DNA from: Escherichia virus TH21
Length of the DNA: 52,087 nt
Sequence record: MT446395.1
Direction: 5' to 3' (one strand)
In this document: positions 3,057-46,974 of the stretch, one piece after another
How positions within the stretch are numbered: position 1 is the first letter of the stretch
Layout of the letters: each line of letters opens with the position of its first letter
Position numbers and translations under genes: made by a program
The notes under the pieces: model-generated
What the model was told of the DNA's origin: nothing
The model's input: only the letters and a program-made list of their open reading frames with translations
The model's database searches: none

Positions 3057-4097
3057 ATGACCAAGCCAATGTTTCAATACTTCACGTCAGAAGAAATGAG
3101 CAACGACTTTTACCACAGCAAAGATGAGTGGACCGCCGAGTATGTATCAGGCTCATCACTCAGCAAGATCCACAGTACTTGCCCTGCGGCGTGGAAGTTT
3201 GAAATGAACTCGACGACTAAGGCGCTGGTCTTCGGTACGCAGTCGCATACCAATTTCGAGAGTAAGGCTCTTTTTGAACGTCAATATCGCCGCGCACCGA
3301 AAGAAAGCGAGATTGAAAACGTAATCACTAGCCAGGCGACATTGGCAACGAAATTAAAATCATTTGGCCTGACTGGTACAAGCGGCAAGCAATATCCAGA
3401 GCTAATCAAAATGATGGTTGATTGTGGAGAAGATCTCAACGTCATGTGGCTGATTAATATGATCGCACAGTGTCAGGCGTGGGCCGATGGTGTGGAACTG
3501 GTTAAAGCGGAAGACTACGACGCTTGCGTAAGTATGCGACAGGTTCTTGAAATGATTCCTGAACATAATGCTTGCATGAACAGCGAAACGGCATTCCGTG
3601 AGTATTCTTTGTTCGGCGTAATTTGTGGCGTTAAAGTTAAGGTGCGACTTGACCATGTTGATATTGTTAAAGATCCAGAAGCTATCCGACGCATGGGTTA
3701 CGATCCTGAGATTCACCCTGAAATTGTCGTCATCACTGATTACAAAACGACAATGAGCGCCAACCCGACCGAGTTCCCTCGCCTGGCGTTCAACCTTGGC
3801 TATTACCTCAAGATGGCATTGCAGCGTGACCTGTTCGTTAAGTGCTTTGAAGAAACGCGACCTGTGGTTGTGCGATTGCTGGCCCAGGAGAAGAAGGAGC
3901 CTTACTTGCCTATGGCGTACCGGATGAGTAGCGATCAGCTTAAGATTGGTCGAGCGCAGTACATGAGCGTGATTCACACCTTCTCAATGTGCGAAGCCAA
4001 TGACGTATGGCCTTCATACAATAATGGCGAGCCGGAAGTAGAACTGGATACGCCTGATTGGGTAATGAAACAGTTCAATCATATCCTAGAAGCATAG
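3057..4097 (+). CDS. recombination exonuclease, PD-(D/E)xK-type
   Basis: 346 aa; D...(I)TDYK nuclease-like motif; first gene of exo-annealase-SSB triad. Confidence 0.55.
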   Translation: MTKPMFQYFTSEEMSNDFYHSKDEWTAEYVSGSSLSKIHSTCPAAWKFEMNSTTKALVFGTQSHTNFESKALFERQYRRAPKESEIENVITSQATLATKLKSFGLTGTSGKQYPELIKMMVDCGEDLNVMWLINMIAQCQAWADGVELVKAEDYDACVSMRQVLEMIPEHNACMNSETAFREYSLFGVICGVKVKVRLDHVDIVKDPEAIRRMGYDPEIHPEIVVITDYKTTMSANPTEFPRLAFNLGYYLKMALQRDLFVKCFEETRPVVVRLLAQEKKEPYLPMAYRMSSDQLKIGRAQYMSVIHTFSMCEANDVWPSYNNGEPEVELDTPDWVMKQFNHILEA

Positions 4098-4111
4098 CAC
4101 TTTTTGCTAAA
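4095..4111 (+). promoter_or_regulatory. cassette palindrome TAGCAC-TTT-TTGCTAAA overlapping the exonuclease stop codon
   Basis: TAG stop is the first 3 nt; TATAAT in hairpin ggtgat..atcacc at 4131..4136; leader ATCAAACGAAG. Confidence 0.5.
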
Positions 4112-4173
4112 CACGAACGCGGTGATTTGCTATAATCACCGTAAATCAAACGAAGTAAACAAAGGTATATATA

Positions 4174-4830
4174 ATGCGTACATCAGAGAAGTTTTCGAAT
4201 GTTTCAGCCGCTCTAATTGCAGCTAAAAAGCAGTTTGCTATCGCAAAAAAATCAGGCTTTAACACTCACCTGAAAAACCATTACTCAAACCTGACGGACG
4301 TTCTGGAGGCCGTTGAACCAGCGCTAAAAGAGCATGACCTTATGGTTATCCAGTCAAACCTGGACACGTCAACCGAAAAGGTAATGCACATTGAGACGCT
4401 CATCCTTCACAGTTCTGGCGAGTGGCTTGCGTTCCAGTACAATATGCCGATCGAGAAGATTAGCGCCCAGGCTTACGGCTCAACAACCTCATACGGTCGC
4501 CGTTACGCATTGTGCGCAGCGCTTGGAATCACTCAGAGCGATGACGACGCTGAAATCGCGAAGCGCACGGCAGCGGACTACAAAAAACTGATCACCAACT
4601 GTGAAAAACTGGAAGACCTCCAGGTGATCTATAAGAGCGCGAAAGGTTCGCTTGGCGCGGCGGAATGGAAGATTGCAGAAGACCACTTGCAGAAGCGCAA
4701 GGCTGAACTGAGTATCGGTAACGCTCGCGGTTTCCAGCCAGCGAAAAAGGCAGATACTCAAAAGGTTGAAGACAAGGTTGCAAACGCACATTCTGAACCT
4801 GTACAATCTGAATCCATCGAACAATTCTAA
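4174..4830 (+). CDS. single-strand annealing protein, Erf-like
   Basis: 218 aa; N-terminal AAKKQF...HLKNHYSNLTDVLEAV and GRRYAL motif pattern typical of Erf-family proteins. Confidence 0.55.
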   Translation: MRTSEKFSNVSAALIAAKKQFAIAKKSGFNTHLKNHYSNLTDVLEAVEPALKEHDLMVIQSNLDTSTEKVMHIETLILHSSGEWLAFQYNMPIEKISAQAYGSTTSYGRRYALCAALGITQSDDDAEIAKRTAADYKKLITNCEKLEDLQVIYKSAKGSLGAAEWKIAEDHLQKRKAELSIGNARGFQPAKKADTQKVEDKVANAHSEPVQSESIEQF

Positions 4831-4870
4831 TCAACGGGGCTTCTGCCCCAACAAAAAAAAGGAAAACACA

Positions 4871-41467: not shown

Positions 41468-41903
41468 CTATATCGTCAGGAAGTTCCAGTGCGATATAGA
41501 GAAGTGGATTAAACAGGTAAAATCTGGCCTTGATGACGTTATTCGTGAGTTCGTCAAGGCTGTACACGCCGATTTAGTTAAAGGCTCACCAGTTGATACA
41601 GGTCGATTTAGAGCTAACTGGCAGATAACCTATAATCACATCCCAATGTACGCGCTGAATGAGTATGACAAATCCGGTAACGCCACCATCGCAGCAGGTA
41701 TACGAACAGCTAACGCATTGCCGTTAGGTCGTGGCGGGGCGGTAACTACCATCTATTTTTCTAACATGCTGATCTATGCAAATGCTCTGGAGTACGGACA
41801 TTCACAGCAAGCTCCCGCTGGCGTGCTTGGCCTGGTGGCTATCCGGTTGAGATCTTACATGGCAGAAGCAATTATTGAATCAAGGAATAAAAATGGTTTA
41901 TGA
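41461..41903 (+). CDS. HK97 gp10-like tail component
   Basis: 147 aa from ATG 41461; DTGRFRANW motif. Confidence 0.5.
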
Positions 41904-42294
41904 CGATTATGACCTGGCGGTCGCGGCGCGTAAGGCGCTTTATGGTGAGTTCGGGAATCGCTTTCCGATCATGAGTGAGAACGTGACATTCACTGAGCCT
42001 GACGATGGCTCTACGTGGTTGAAGTTCGATTACATTCCGGCAGAGAAGACGTATAAATCTTTGAGCAGGAAGTGTATCAGGATTCGTGGACTCGTACAGA
42101 TTGGCATTGTGTTCTCTCCTGATACTGGCATGGACGACGCGCGCAAACTGGCAAAAGAAATTGCTAATTTCTTCGAAGATGGTAAAATCCTTTCTGTAGG
42201 TTTTATTTTTGAAGGCGCGAGCCAAAAGCCCGTGCAGAAATCACAACGAGGCTGGTTAATTCCAATCCGCTTCACAGTACAATACGACGAATAA
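41893..42294 (+). CDS. tail terminator/neck protein candidate
   Basis: 133 aa from ATG 41893 (RBS AGGAA). Confidence 0.4.
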   Translation: MVYDDYDLAVAARKALYGEFGNRFPIMSENVTFTEPDDGSTWLKFDYIPAEKTYKSLSRKCIRIRGLVQIGIVFSPDTGMDDARKLAKEIANFFEDGKILSVGFIFEGASQKPVQKSQRGWLIPIRFTVQYDE

Positions 42295-42307: not shown

Positions 42308-42979
42308 ATGGCACTTCCTAACGGTTCCCAAATCTTTATTGAGCAGACCCGATCAGCGACCGAAATCGAAGCAACCGGAGTGAGCAACGCGGAGAATCCG
42401 GTGGCGACTGTTGCGTCAACCACTGGCATTGTGAAAGGCGATTACGTCCTGGTGCTGGAAAGCGTATGGGCTGCATTTAAAAATCGCGTAATGCGAGTGA
42501 AAGAAGTAACCCTGGACGCATCAATCACGCTTGAAGGCGACAAGAACACTTCCACGGCTGACCTTAACAAGTTCCCCGCTGGCGGCGCTTCCACCTTCGT
42601 TAAGATCGAAAGCTGGATTGAGATTCCATGCGTGAGCGACATTGCAAAATCTGGCGGCGAGCAGCAGTTCTATACCAAGCAGTGTCTTTCAGATGACCGA
42701 GAGAAGCAGATCCCGACCTTTAAATCTGCGACGTCCATCGCGTATACGTTCGACTTCGACTACTCCAACCCAATCACCCAGCTTCTGATTGGTTACGACG
42801 AAGACGGCAAGACGCGCGCCATGCGAATGTTCGTACCGAAGGCAAGCTATCCGATTCGCACCTTCTCTGGTACGCCATCTTTCGATGACATCCCTAACAC
42901 GGTGATGAACGAAGATGAAACGACCATCCTGACCATCTCACTTGATGGAAAATACACGCACATGAAAGAATCTGCGTAA
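42308..42979 (+). CDS. major tail protein
   Basis: 223 aa; position before chaperone and tape-measure genes. Confidence 0.6.
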   Translation: MALPNGSQIFIEQTRSATEIEATGVSNAENPVATVASTTGIVKGDYVLVLESVWAAFKNRVMRVKEVTLDASITLEGDKNTSTADLNKFPAGGASTFVKIESWIEIPCVSDIAKSGGEQQFYTKQCLSDDREKQIPTFKSATSIAYTFDFDYSNPITQLLIGYDEDGKTRAMRMFVPKASYPIRTFSGTPSFDDIPNTVMNEDETTILTISLDGKYTHMKESA

Positions 42980-42984
42980 TACAA

Positions 42985-43005
42985 GGGGGCTATTGCCCCC
43001 TTTTT
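42985..43005 (+). terminator. intrinsic terminator
   Basis: hairpin gggggc-tatt-gccccc plus T5. Confidence 0.6.
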
Positions 43006-43051
43006 CTATTTATGATTTAATATCACCAATTCAAACAAAGAGGAAAACAAC

Positions 43052-43369
43052 ATGAGCTTTAAAGTAACCCTATCTGAACGCCTGCCAGACTTCCAGCTTC
43101 CGGTTAAATTCGTATTGCCTAACGGAGTTGAAGCTACATTTGCATTCACTGTCAAGGCGCTGACGTCATCTGAGCTTAACGCCACGCTGAAAGAAGCCAG
43201 CAATCAGACTGGTGCTCAGTTTGTAAAATCCCTGGCTAGCGGGTGGGAGCTTGAGGATGAGTTCAACGATGAAAACATTAACAAGCTGGTTGATAGTTAC
43301 CCCGCCGTTGTTGGTGGCCTGATCTCAACCTACACTCAAGCGCTGGCTGGCTACCGAGTAAAAAACTAA
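43052..43369 (+). CDS. tail assembly chaperone (lambda G-like)
   Basis: 105 aa; precedes tape-measure gene; ends at slippery site. Confidence 0.6.
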   Translation: MSFKVTLSERLPDFQLPVKFVLPNGVEATFAFTVKALTSSELNATLKEASNQTGAQFVKSLASGWELEDEFNDENINKLVDSYPAVVGGLISTYTQALAGYRVKN

Positions 43370-43680
43370 AACGGGCGGTCGAGCTACTATTTAGACGAAC
43401 GCCCACAGATGCAGAATTAGAGGCATACGGATTAACCCGTGAAGACTACGAAAACGAAGATCCAGAGATATTGCAGTTCGACGAGGAAACTTACCAGTCA
43501 TGGGAAGTATTCACCGCAATGCAAACTCAATGGAGGTCTGCCGGAGCAGGTGCTTACGGGCTTGATTATAATGTCTTGCCTATGCTATTTCGAATCTATA
43601 AAATAGATTGTGAAGAAATGGCCTTAAATGATGTGCGCGTGATGGAAGCGGAAGCGCTTAAGCAAATGCACAAAAAATAA
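43360..43680 (+). CDS. -1 frameshift extension of the tail chaperone (lambda GT-like)
   Basis: slippery heptamer A-AAA-AAC at 43360..43366; the -1 frame is open from there to 43680. Confidence 0.55.
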   Translation, partial: KKLKRAVELLFRRTPTDAELEAYGLTREDYENEDPEILQFDEETYQSWEVFTAMQTQWRSAGAGAYGLDYNVLPMLFRIYKIDCEEMALNDVRVMEAEALKQMHKK

Positions 43681-43681
43681 T

Positions 43682-43703
43682 AGCGCCTACGGGCGCTTTT
43701 TTC
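43682..43703 (+). terminator. intrinsic terminator
   Basis: hairpin agcgcc-tac-gggcgct plus T6. Confidence 0.6.
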
Positions 43704-43716
43704 GTATGGGGGTTTT

Positions 43717-46623
43717 ATGACAGATAAATTTGCAGGGCTATCGCTTGGGGTTGACGTATCCCAGGTTGACGCGGCGGTTAAATCTCTGGATGACTTATCC
43801 AGGGCGAACGGCACAGCCGGAAAGAGCTTTGACAATTTCATTGATGCCGAGCAAGTCGCAAAGCAGAAGATGAAAGAGTTCAACAACGAGGTGAAGCGCC
43901 AGAAGAAGGAGTTCTCTGATGTAGAAAAGGTCATAGACCCTACAGCGAACAAGATGCGACAGTTGCAGCAAGCAAGTGTGGATCTGGATAAACTCTGGAG
44001 TAAGGGCATGGTCCCAGACAAGGAGTTTTTTAACCTTTCAAGCATGATTGAGACTCAGATTAACGCGCTTAATCGTTCGAAACTTGCCATGACAGAAGAA
44101 GGTCGGGCGGCGCTGGAGAACTCAAAGGCAAAGGCCGCAGCAAAGAACAGCGCTGATTCATTCCTTAAATCACTAAGGGATCAGGCGAACGCAGCTACCA
44201 TGACAAAGCAGGAGCTATTGGAGCTGAGAGCCGCAGAGCTTGGAGTGACAGCTCAGGCCGCTCCATTTATCGCCGCAATGAATAAGCAGGCAAAGGCTAC
44301 AAACGTCGCTGGGCTTTCTGTTGGTGAGTACAAAAACGCAATGCGTATGCTACCAGCTCAAATAACTGATGTGGTTACTTCCCTTGCGTCAGGGATGCCT
44401 GTGTGGTTGGTGGCTGTTCAGCAGGGCGGACAGATCAAGGACTCATTCGGCGGCGTAGGCAATACATTCAAGGTTCTGCTTTCATACCTGAATCCAGTGA
44501 CAGTTGGGATGACTGCGATGGGTATTGCGCTTGCTGGCCTGGCTAAAGCTGGTTACGACTCCTACCGCTCAATTACAGATATGAAAAATGCCTTGATTGA
44601 AACTGGCGGATTTGCAGCGGCGAGCGCGGCGGACCTTGATCAGATCGCAAACAAGATTGCAGATACCAGCAACGCGACTATCGGATCTGTTCGAGATATT
44701 GCAACTGAACTAGCAAAAAGCGGTAAGTACACTCAGGACCAAATCAGGAATATCACCCGCGCCACCGCTGAATGGTCAGCCGCAACGGGCCGAGCTACGA
44801 GCGACATTATAAGTGACTTTGGCAAGATTGCAGATGATCCGGTGAAAGGGCTTGCGAAGCTGAATGAGCAATACAACTTCCTGGAGAAAGGCCAACTGAC
44901 ATATATCAACGGGATTGTTAAAACCAAGGGCGAAACCGAAGCTGCGACGGAGGCGACCAAGCTGTTTGCTGACACCATGGAAGAACGCATGAGCAAGATT
45001 GCAGGCACTGCAACGCCGCTTGAAAAAATGTGGACTGACATTAAGAAATGGTCATCCGACGCTTGGGGTTGGGTTGGCGATCATACACTCGGCGCTCTAA
45101 ACCTCATCATTGATGTGGTTAGCGGTACGGTGATTCAGGTAAAAATGATTCTCGCCAAGGGTGACGAATACATTTCTAACTTTATCGCATCGGCAATAAA
45201 GGCAACGCAAAGCCTGCCTGGTATGAGTGATTTCGGTAAGGATATTCTCAACGAACAGCAGACTATCGTTAAGAACTCCAAAGACACCTATGACAGCCTC
45301 GCAAAAGATCTGGACGTGATTAACGCGCGAGTAGAAAAGGGCGAGATGGGTTACATCAATGCTCTAAAAGGACGTCGTGATCTGGAGAAGCAGTACAGCA
45401 AGGAGACTAAGGAGGCCGTAGAGAAGGAAGCTAAAGCGATTGAGGAGCAAAACAGGAAGAAAGCAAAAAGCAGCAGCGGAGTCACCAAGGGCGCTACAGA
45501 GCAGCTTGACAAAGAACTTTACATTCTCAAAGCTCAGCTAAAAGTACTCCAGGAACATAGCTCTATAAACGACAAGATCTCAAGTCAAAGGAAAGCTCTG
45601 TGGGCTACTGAGGCTCAGATTGCAATCCTCCAGGACGCGCAGAGTAAGCGCAAACTTACCAACGAGGAAAAGGCATTGCTCGCCAGTCAGCAAAAGGTGT
45701 TATCGCTATCGAAGGAGAAGGCCGAGTTAGGGGATCAGATTGTCCAGCAGGAGCGAATTAACAAGCTGAATGATGAGTCAATGAAGTTCATCATGCAGAT
45801 TGACGCAGCGAGTAAAAGCCTTAACGCCACGCGAGCTATGGGTACTCGCGAAGCTGAGCGGCAGATTCAGCTAGAGAAGATTAGGGCTGACTATATGTCA
45901 AAAGGTGGCGGCGCTGATGACTCTGCACTGTCGAACATGATTGATAAGCAGAAGGAGTATTACGCGGAAGAGGATCAGCTTCGTGGTGATTGGTTAGCTG
46001 GGGCGCAGCGTGCATTCGCCGATTACGGAGAGAGTGCAAACGACATGAATGCAAATGTATATGACGTCACAATGGCATCCCTTAACGGAATGAGCGATAT
46101 GATGACCGAGTTCTTGATGACTGGCCAGGCAAACTTTGCCGACTTTGCAAAGAGCATTATCAGCCAGATCATTAAGATGATCACGCAGATGGTAATCTTC
46201 AACTCACTATCTGGAATGGGAATAGGCAGCGGCAAGGGATTCTCTTTCGCTAACTCAGGGTGGTTCGCCACTGGCGGTTACACCGGAGATGGCGGCAAGT
46301 ATGAGCCAGCAGGCACGGTTCATAAAGGTGAGTTTGTCATGACCAAGGAAGCTACCAAGCGAATTGGCGTCGATAACCTTTATCGAATGATGCGCGGTTA
46401 TGCTAATGGCGGCGTGGTTGGTGGAACAACAATCGGTGGCGGCGGTAGTGCAATCATGGCTGGCGGCGTGACAATCGGAAGCATCCCTGTTAGCATAAAT
46501 AACGGTAGCGATCCGAAGGGCATGGAGCAGGGCGTGAAAATGATTTTCAAGCAAATGATTCAGGAATCATGTGCCCAGGGTGGCGAAGTTTACAATTACA
46601 TCAACGGAAAAGCAGGAGCGTAA
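43717..46623 (+). CDS. tape measure protein
   Basis: 968 aa; coiled-coil-rich; hydrophobic segments; follows chaperone. Confidence 0.8.
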
Positions 46624-46626
46624 TAA

Positions 46627-46974
46627 ATGGCACTAGACGTATTCAATTGGTGCGTACAGGTTCAGGATGGTGGCGGTGTGATGACCGTCACCAACAATGA
46701 CAGACAGGTGCAGTTTGGTAATGGATTCCGCCAGGTTGCATCGTCTGGCTACAACACTGAGCGACGAGAGTACGCAATCAGTTACGTTGGCAAGGACTGG
46801 AAAGAGGTGCGCGAATTTTTGCGATCGCACAGACTGAAAGCCTTTGCCTTTACCCCACCGGAGGACAAGATCGGCGTCTTCCTATTGAAGCCTGACACGC
46901 TTAATACTCAGCCAATCGGTCGAGGTCTTCTTGTCGTAAAATGCACCATTGTAGAAGCCTTCACAGCGGTGTAG
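46627..46974 (+). CDS. minor tail protein (lambda M-like)
   Basis: 115 aa; position after tape measure. Confidence 0.55.
   Translation: MALDVFNWCVQVQDGGGVMTVTNNDRQVQFGNGFRQVASSGYNTERREYAISYVGKDWKEVREFLRSHRLKAFAFTPPEDKIGVFLLKPDTLNTQPIGRGLLVVKCTIVEAFTAV

Follow-up and report, generated by a model that had tools for sequence, protein, structure and literature searches.

Gene organization around the G/T locus

The window, i.e. the whole stretch of 52,087 nucleotides analyzed here, derives from a T1-like coliphage of the Drexlerviridae and is Nouzillyvirus-like. In the region under study its DNA shows 97% identity to Escherichia virus TH30 and 93-96% to ESCO41 (classified as Drexlerviridae, genus Nouzillyvirus), P817 and others. 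The genes and features are as follows.

41875..42294, tail terminator gene
42308..42979, plus strand, tail tube (major tail) protein gene (Pfam PF08813 Phage_tail_3, E = 7.5e-48)
42983..43010, plus strand, predicted terminator-like hairpin with T-run between the tube gene and G (consensus scan)
43040..43044, plus strand, Shine-Dalgarno sequence GAGGA, 7 nt upstream of the G ATG (sequence reading)
43052..43369, plus strand, gene G for the tail assembly (tape-measure) chaperone, product of standard decoding (ATG start, 105 aa)
43360..43366, plus strand, slippery heptamer A AAA AAC in the register X_XXY_YYZ (codons Lys104 and Asn105 of G)
43367..43369, plus strand, zero-frame stop TAA directly 3' of the heptamer
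43366..43680, plus strand, T segment in the -1 frame (104 codons plus TAA)
43373..43404, plus strand, candidate stimulatory hairpin 6 nt after the heptamer (stems GGGCG/CGCCC, GTC/GAC and CTA/TAG)
43682..43703, plus strand, predicted terminator-like hairpin with T-run between T and the tape-measure gene (consensus scan)
43717..46623, plus strand, tape measure protein gene (968 aa; TMP_2, E = 3e-67; Tape_meas_lam_C, E = 6.5e-21)
46627..46974, minor tail protein gene

The succession of tail terminator, tail tube, G, T, tape measure and minor tail genes is the canonical order of long-tailed siphoviruses, and with a tape-measure gene that starts at 43717 the proposed frameshift lies just upstream of it, as the initial annotation had placed it. 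By analogy, the tape measure protein is presumed to be the client of G and of GT (the fusion of G with T), and the tail tube protein is presumed to be the binding partner of the T domain because lambda gpV and gpT offer a parallel (PMC5009743). Two terminator-like hairpins bracket the G/T cistron, at 42983..43002 and 43682..43697. The upstream one (42983..43010 with its T-run) has an 8-bp stem with 6 GC pairs that is followed by TTTCTATTTA; the downstream one (43682..43703 with its T-run) looks like a terminator in minus-strand orientation too, and at the equivalent position the record of phage T1 carries an annotated rho-independent terminator. Together, both hairpins may tune the expression of tube, chaperone and tape measure relative to each other.

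A chaperone gene that ends on a slippery heptamer

Sequence reading of the 3' end of G gives GTA AAA AAC TAA. The chaperone ORF ends at 43369 directly after the heptamer at 43360..43366, and this is what had been claimed for it at the outset. On translation, the -1 frame proves to be free of stops from 43297 up to the TAA at 43678..43680 and overlaps the 3' end of G by 70 nt, in agreement with the earlier statement that this frame is open from the slip site to 43680; the +1 frame is closed by many stops. Joining both segments as join(43052..43366, 43366..43680) yields a GT fusion of 209 aa (105 + 104), exactly the size that had been estimated.

At protein level, both halves of the fusion are recognizable. 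G matches Pfam PF08748 (Phage_TAC_4) over its full length (E = 1.8e-23) and scores 83.5 bits, well above the gathering cut-off of 21.1; T matches Pfam PF08809 (DUF1799; E = 3.4e-14) and with 53.3 bits is likewise above its cut-off of 26. G also matches the PHROG profiles phrog_569 and phrog_17368. The latter, with 213 positions, covers both halves, G aligning to positions 4-107 and T to positions 109-211, and a single profile that runs across G and T implies that some phage records already hold both as one protein. A PDB sequence search gave no match, and AlphaFold2, run on the GT sequence alone, gave a model of low quality (mean pLDDT 46.3). As for the fold, Pell et al. reportedly described in 2013 a conserved spiral fold for tail assembly chaperones.

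The bare sequence pattern is not beyond chance

Taken alone, the combination of a heptamer with a long -1 extension is not beyond chance. When the window was scanned by script, an in-frame XXXYYYZ within the last 40 codons turned up in 10 of 92 plus-strand ORFs of at least 60 aa, and 4 of these 10 heptamer-bearing ORFs had a -1 extension of at least 79 aa. Long -1 extensions are frequent because phage genes are tightly packed. One of these four, an AAAAAAC plus stop at 4582..4591 with an 80-codon -1 extension, was rejected as a false positive in a spurious ORF (4391..4591, 66 aa), which is an alternative frame inside the real gene at 4174..4830 (218 aa). This look-alike and the frequency of the pattern made us reject the bare pattern as evidence. 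What lifts the site at 43360 above chance is the comparative and protein-level evidence.

As a side observation from the same neighborhood, the short spacer 3' of gene 4174..4830 holds, within 4845..4860, a run of eight A residues (A8, 4853..4860) that adjoins a GGGGCTTCTGCCCC hairpin.

Conservation of the slip site among relatives

A tblastn search with the 209-aa fusion returned 1149 phage records, 1007 of which cover at least 80% of the fusion, and among the matches listed all that cover both halves align in two pieces that lie in two frames. For a comparison of slip sites, 62 loci (20 from GenBank, 42 from IMG/VR) were condensed to 55 distinct contexts, and at each locus the site was read as the 7 nt directly upstream of the stop of G. 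The distribution was as follows.

GGGAAAC, 20 contexts
AAAAAAC, 19 contexts
TTTAAAC, 8 contexts
GGGAAAG, 1 context
non-canonical last 7 nt, 7 contexts

A comparison with related phages, which had been proposed initially as a check, thus shows the slip site to be conserved: a canonical heptamer of the form X_XXA_AA[C/G] supplies the last two sense codons and is immediately followed by the stop in 48 of 55 contexts. The stop itself is TAA in 41, TGA in 12 and TAG in 2 of the 55. The X triplet changes as one block among A, G and T, and such block switching is the pattern expected if a second tRNA has to find a new match in the -1 frame. The arrangement is found in many independently sequenced phages, non-homopolymer variants included, which rules out a homopolymer sequencing error as its source.

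In the 7 non-canonical contexts there is an A_AAA or A_AAG tetramer instead, placed one codon 5' of the final sense codon. The junctions are as follows.

Webervirus (seven loci), GCA AAA GTT TAA
Rogunavirus (one locus), GCA AAG GTC TAA
Border_ER3, CAA AAG CCT TAA

Judged from these sequences, slippage of a single tRNA that leaves a junction of the same length is suggested for the non-canonical relatives. DUF1799 was present in 8 of 8 distant -1 extensions tested, and the analysis as a whole shows this domain to be the frameshift-extension (T) domain of Phage_TAC_4 chaperones. Two Dhillonvirus genomes confine the event further, as a TGA in their -1 frame abuts the heptamer (CG TGA AAA AAA C) and leaves this frame just 7 open nucleotides upstream of the stop of G; from this 7-nt opening it follows that in these phages the slip is possible on the heptamer alone.

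Among the GenBank records with a T1-type G/GT we came across MG065640.1 and MG065637.1 ('Campylobacter phage A14b/A15b'), with 57-58% amino acid identity to the window. A Campylobacter host label looks odd for an enterobacterial phage family, and one of the two A14b/A15b records has a genome of 47 kb, a T1-like size.

A -1 frameshift model for GT

To our minds, GT is very probably made by -1 slippage at 43360..43366. According to this model, most ribosomes would translate G from 43052 to 43366 and end at the TAA, giving the 105-aa chaperone, and a small minority would slip one base back on A AAA AAC. For these, the Lys and Asn tRNAs would re-pair with AAA AAA, decoding would restart at CUA (43366) and translation would go on to 43680, giving a 209-aa GT with DUF1799 as its C-terminal half. 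If lambda is a guide, the tape measure protein would be covered by G and, through its G part, by GT, and the T part of GT would bring in the tail tube protein. The efficiency of slipping would set a fixed, low ratio of GT to G, which for a member of the G/GT class of Xu et al. (2004) should amount to a few percent or less. By the same analogy (PMC5009743), both G and T would be absent from virions.

That the arrangement resembles the conserved chaperone frameshift of long-tailed phages had been proposed from the DNA alone, and gene order, Pfam pair and a joined CDS in T1 now back this up. In the GenBank record of T1 (AY216660), which is the family's type member, CPTT1_039 (AAP50000.2) is a two-piece joined CDS described as 'tape measure chaperone, frameshift product', with CPTT1_038 as the chaperone and GCA AAA AAC TAA as the junction. 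T1 and the window are orthologous here (54% tblastn identity over the fusion) and have in common the Pfam pair, an identical A AAA AAC TAA, a G of 105 aa, a hairpin at the same place and a terminator between T and the tape-measure gene. They differ in that T1 belongs to another genus, its T has 106 aa compared with 104 in the window, and its hairpin has a different sequence with compensatory changes, the hairpin of the window being the weaker of the two.

The G/GT frameshift was first shown in lambda and is conserved in long-tailed phages (Levin 1993, Xu 2004), according to the summary that PMC5009743 gives of the lambda accounts (Levin 1993; Xu 2004, 2013, 2014). In lambda, too, G/GT lies between the tail tube and tape-measure genes, T is appended by a -1 shift close to the 3' end of G, and the role is presumably the same as here; the G:GT ratio that lambda needs is about 30:1 (PMC5009743). 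At the level of sequence the two systems part. Lambda G and T belong to PF06894 and PF06223, whereas the window has PF08748 and PF08809, and its proteins gave no match to PF06894 or PF06223 at E <= 1 although lambda's own proteins match. The window feature is thus lambda-G/GT-like in function but not a sequence-level member of the lambda families. The heptamers differ as well, lambda using G GGA AAG, a strong shifter in E. coli that lies 5 sense codons before the stop, in contrast to the weak A AAA AAC of the window, which abuts the stop. The latter heptamer recurs in IS1 insA-insB', where A_AAA_AAC has been proven to work as a low-level -1 site on ribosomes of E. coli and lacks an established stimulator (PMC4066793), albeit in unrelated (transposase) genes. 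A further comparison, gp12/gp13 of Acinetobacter phage Loki, differs from the window in host and phage group. A G/GT-like frameshift is also mentioned in the announcement of a T1-like Klebsiella phage (PMC6763657), and a literature search for papers on frameshifting in Drexlerviridae found none. All in all, the G/GT frameshift described here is ordinary, already known and annotated in T1, and keeping two tail chaperones at a low fixed ratio through ribosomal slippage has been textbook knowledge since lambda.

Expected efficiency and possible stimulators

In E. coli reporters, A_AAA_AAC shifts at 0.16% without a stimulator, 0.19% with the IS911 stimulators and 0.74% with the IS3 pseudoknot (Sharma et al. 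2014, PMC4066793); for A_AAA_AAG the corresponding values are 0.29%, 4.3% and 39%, and re-pairing of AAC to AAA is poorly tolerated by bacterial ribosomes (PMC4066793). With A_AAA_AAC being this weak in the reporters, we infer that GT output should be low, and judged by the same reporters, either GT would be made at well under 1% or another stimulator would act. The initial annotation was silent on two possible stimulators, the downstream hairpin and the adjoining stop.

The local element at 43373..43404 folds with an energy of -13.1 kcal/mol. A hairpin of different sequence (GGCGGTT/AACCGCC) occupies the same place in T1 and its nearer relatives. In a 20-sequence alignment the 9-pair helix is paired in 70% of cells compared with 61% in shuffles, 5 of its pairs are changed on both sides, and its covariation score is 0.249 as opposed to 0.122 in shuffles and at most 0.163 in slid controls. 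RNAalifold on 20 relatives found no family-wide consensus structure. When hairpin stability was assessed against 1000 synonymous-codon shuffles that preserve the T protein, it was significant in T1 (z = -3.5), BrunoManser (z = -5.1), YSP2 (z = -3.7) and aaroes (z = -3.2) and not significant in the window (z = -1.2), where 12% of the shuffles were as stable. TR2, UDF157lw and phiA2-1, from three clades, have no such hairpin, and the hairpin-less relatives in Braunvirinae and Rogunavirinae retain the G/T module. The hairpin is well backed in T1 and its nearer relatives and only poorly in the window, where the element at 43373..43404 may plausibly stimulate slipping.

Searches for other stimulators gave little. 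Rfam at E <= 1 detected no family at the site within 42900..43800, its sole match there being a sub-threshold sRNA that falls on the upstream terminator in opposite orientation. Inspection by eye of the 20 nt that precede the heptamer revealed no Shine-Dalgarno-like stimulator of the dnaX type, and the phage has no tRNA gene that could modulate Lys or Asn decoding.

In bacteria, stop codons can stimulate -1 slippage, as the older literature has it. The same GT could arise with the adjoining stop, rather than the hairpin, as the main stimulator: once translocation has moved the tRNAs for Lys and Asn to the E and P sites and brought TAA into the A site, a slow release factor would allow a -1 slip that exposes CUA. 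Several of our findings would fit such a scenario. The stop follows the heptamer directly in all 48 canonical contexts (48/48), even though the T codon that overlaps it, the second, can stand for K, I, R, T, V or G; some clades do without the hairpin; heptamers ending in AAC are intrinsically weak in E. coli and would need another stimulator, and the stronger G_GGA_AAG of lambda has its stop 5 codons away. A fixed stop may, however, instead result from selection for a precise C-terminal end of G, which in the window loss of the TAA would lengthen by 16 residues. We regard the stop as an unlikely main stimulator, and the wider proposition that the signal of the PF08748/DUF1799 family is a composite 'X_XXA_AAC + stop codon', not the heptamer alone, is equally doubtful. 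If true, it would mean that a poorly shifting AAC codon in the A site is offset by a release-factor-limited pause at the abutting stop, and that GT output is tied to termination kinetics, and thus to the release factor levels and growth state of the host, not to RNA structure.

Coding signature of T and the origin of its reading frame

Slippage might also be transcriptional, with RNA polymerase adding an A in the A6 run so that some mRNAs encode GT in one frame. The site is indeed a run of six A, and homopolymer slippage is a known bacterial route to a change of frame (PMC5009743). Against it speak the G GGA AAC (20) and T TTA AAC (8) contexts, which have just three A in a row; the feature kept across relatives is tandem re-pairing rather than homopolymer length. 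Efficient transcriptional slippage in E. coli, moreover, takes longer runs, of some 9 residues upward. We consider this route very improbable and return to ribosomal slippage at 43360..43366 as the preferred origin of GT.

T bears the marks of a protein-coding segment over its entire length. With 18 T segments of Drexlerviridae aligned codon by codon, column entropy at codon positions 1, 2 and 3 is 0.68, 0.57 and 1.31 for T residues 1-35, and 0.78, 0.49 and 1.25 for residues 36-104. The coding signature is thus equal in both parts and runs from the first codon after the slip. Conservation of T at the protein level sets in with the first residues (LKRAV.L...), its DUF1799 match starts at residue 22, which is encoded upstream of 43471, and T-frame peptides encoded upstream of 43471 include AVELLFR and TPTDAELEAYGLTR. 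Between 43297 and 43470, a stretch that spans the first 35 T codons, the -1 frame contains no ATG, GTG or TTG. A TTG at 43471 opens a 69-aa ORF, and sequence reading found no Shine-Dalgarno sequence before it. The lack of an early start codon and the conservation of the first 35 codons together argue that the T extension does not stem from independent initiation.

That T is a separate gene with its own start codon and never fused to G, as GenBank records of several relatives have it by annotating T as its own CDS and as the TTG at 43471 might invite, is hardly credible in view of that start-free, conserved stretch with its third-position variation, the early onset of DUF1799, the missing Shine-Dalgarno sequence and annotated starts that differ from phage to phage (the ATG in LF82-40 arises by an L-to-M change).

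Annotation of G and T in public records

In the window, G and T should be annotated as join(43052..43366, 43366..43680). To pair a chaperone gene with a stray 'hypothetical protein' or with another 'tape measure protein' is incorrect, and such models are found in the nearest public records, among them ESCO41, CJ19, PH1062 and P817. Among the Nouzillyvirus records inspected, none has a joined CDS; records of close relatives list G together with a 'hypothetical protein' or a shortened 'tape measure protein', and several give T as a separate CDS.

T is misannotated in ESCO41 (3758..4386 of our locus L001), CJ19, PH1062, aaroes and tinuso, where it is omitted, cut short at an arbitrary start or, together with G, called 'tail length tape measure protein'. 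The same misnomer, 'tail length tape measure protein', is shared by the labels of phrog_569, phrog_680 and phrog_17368.
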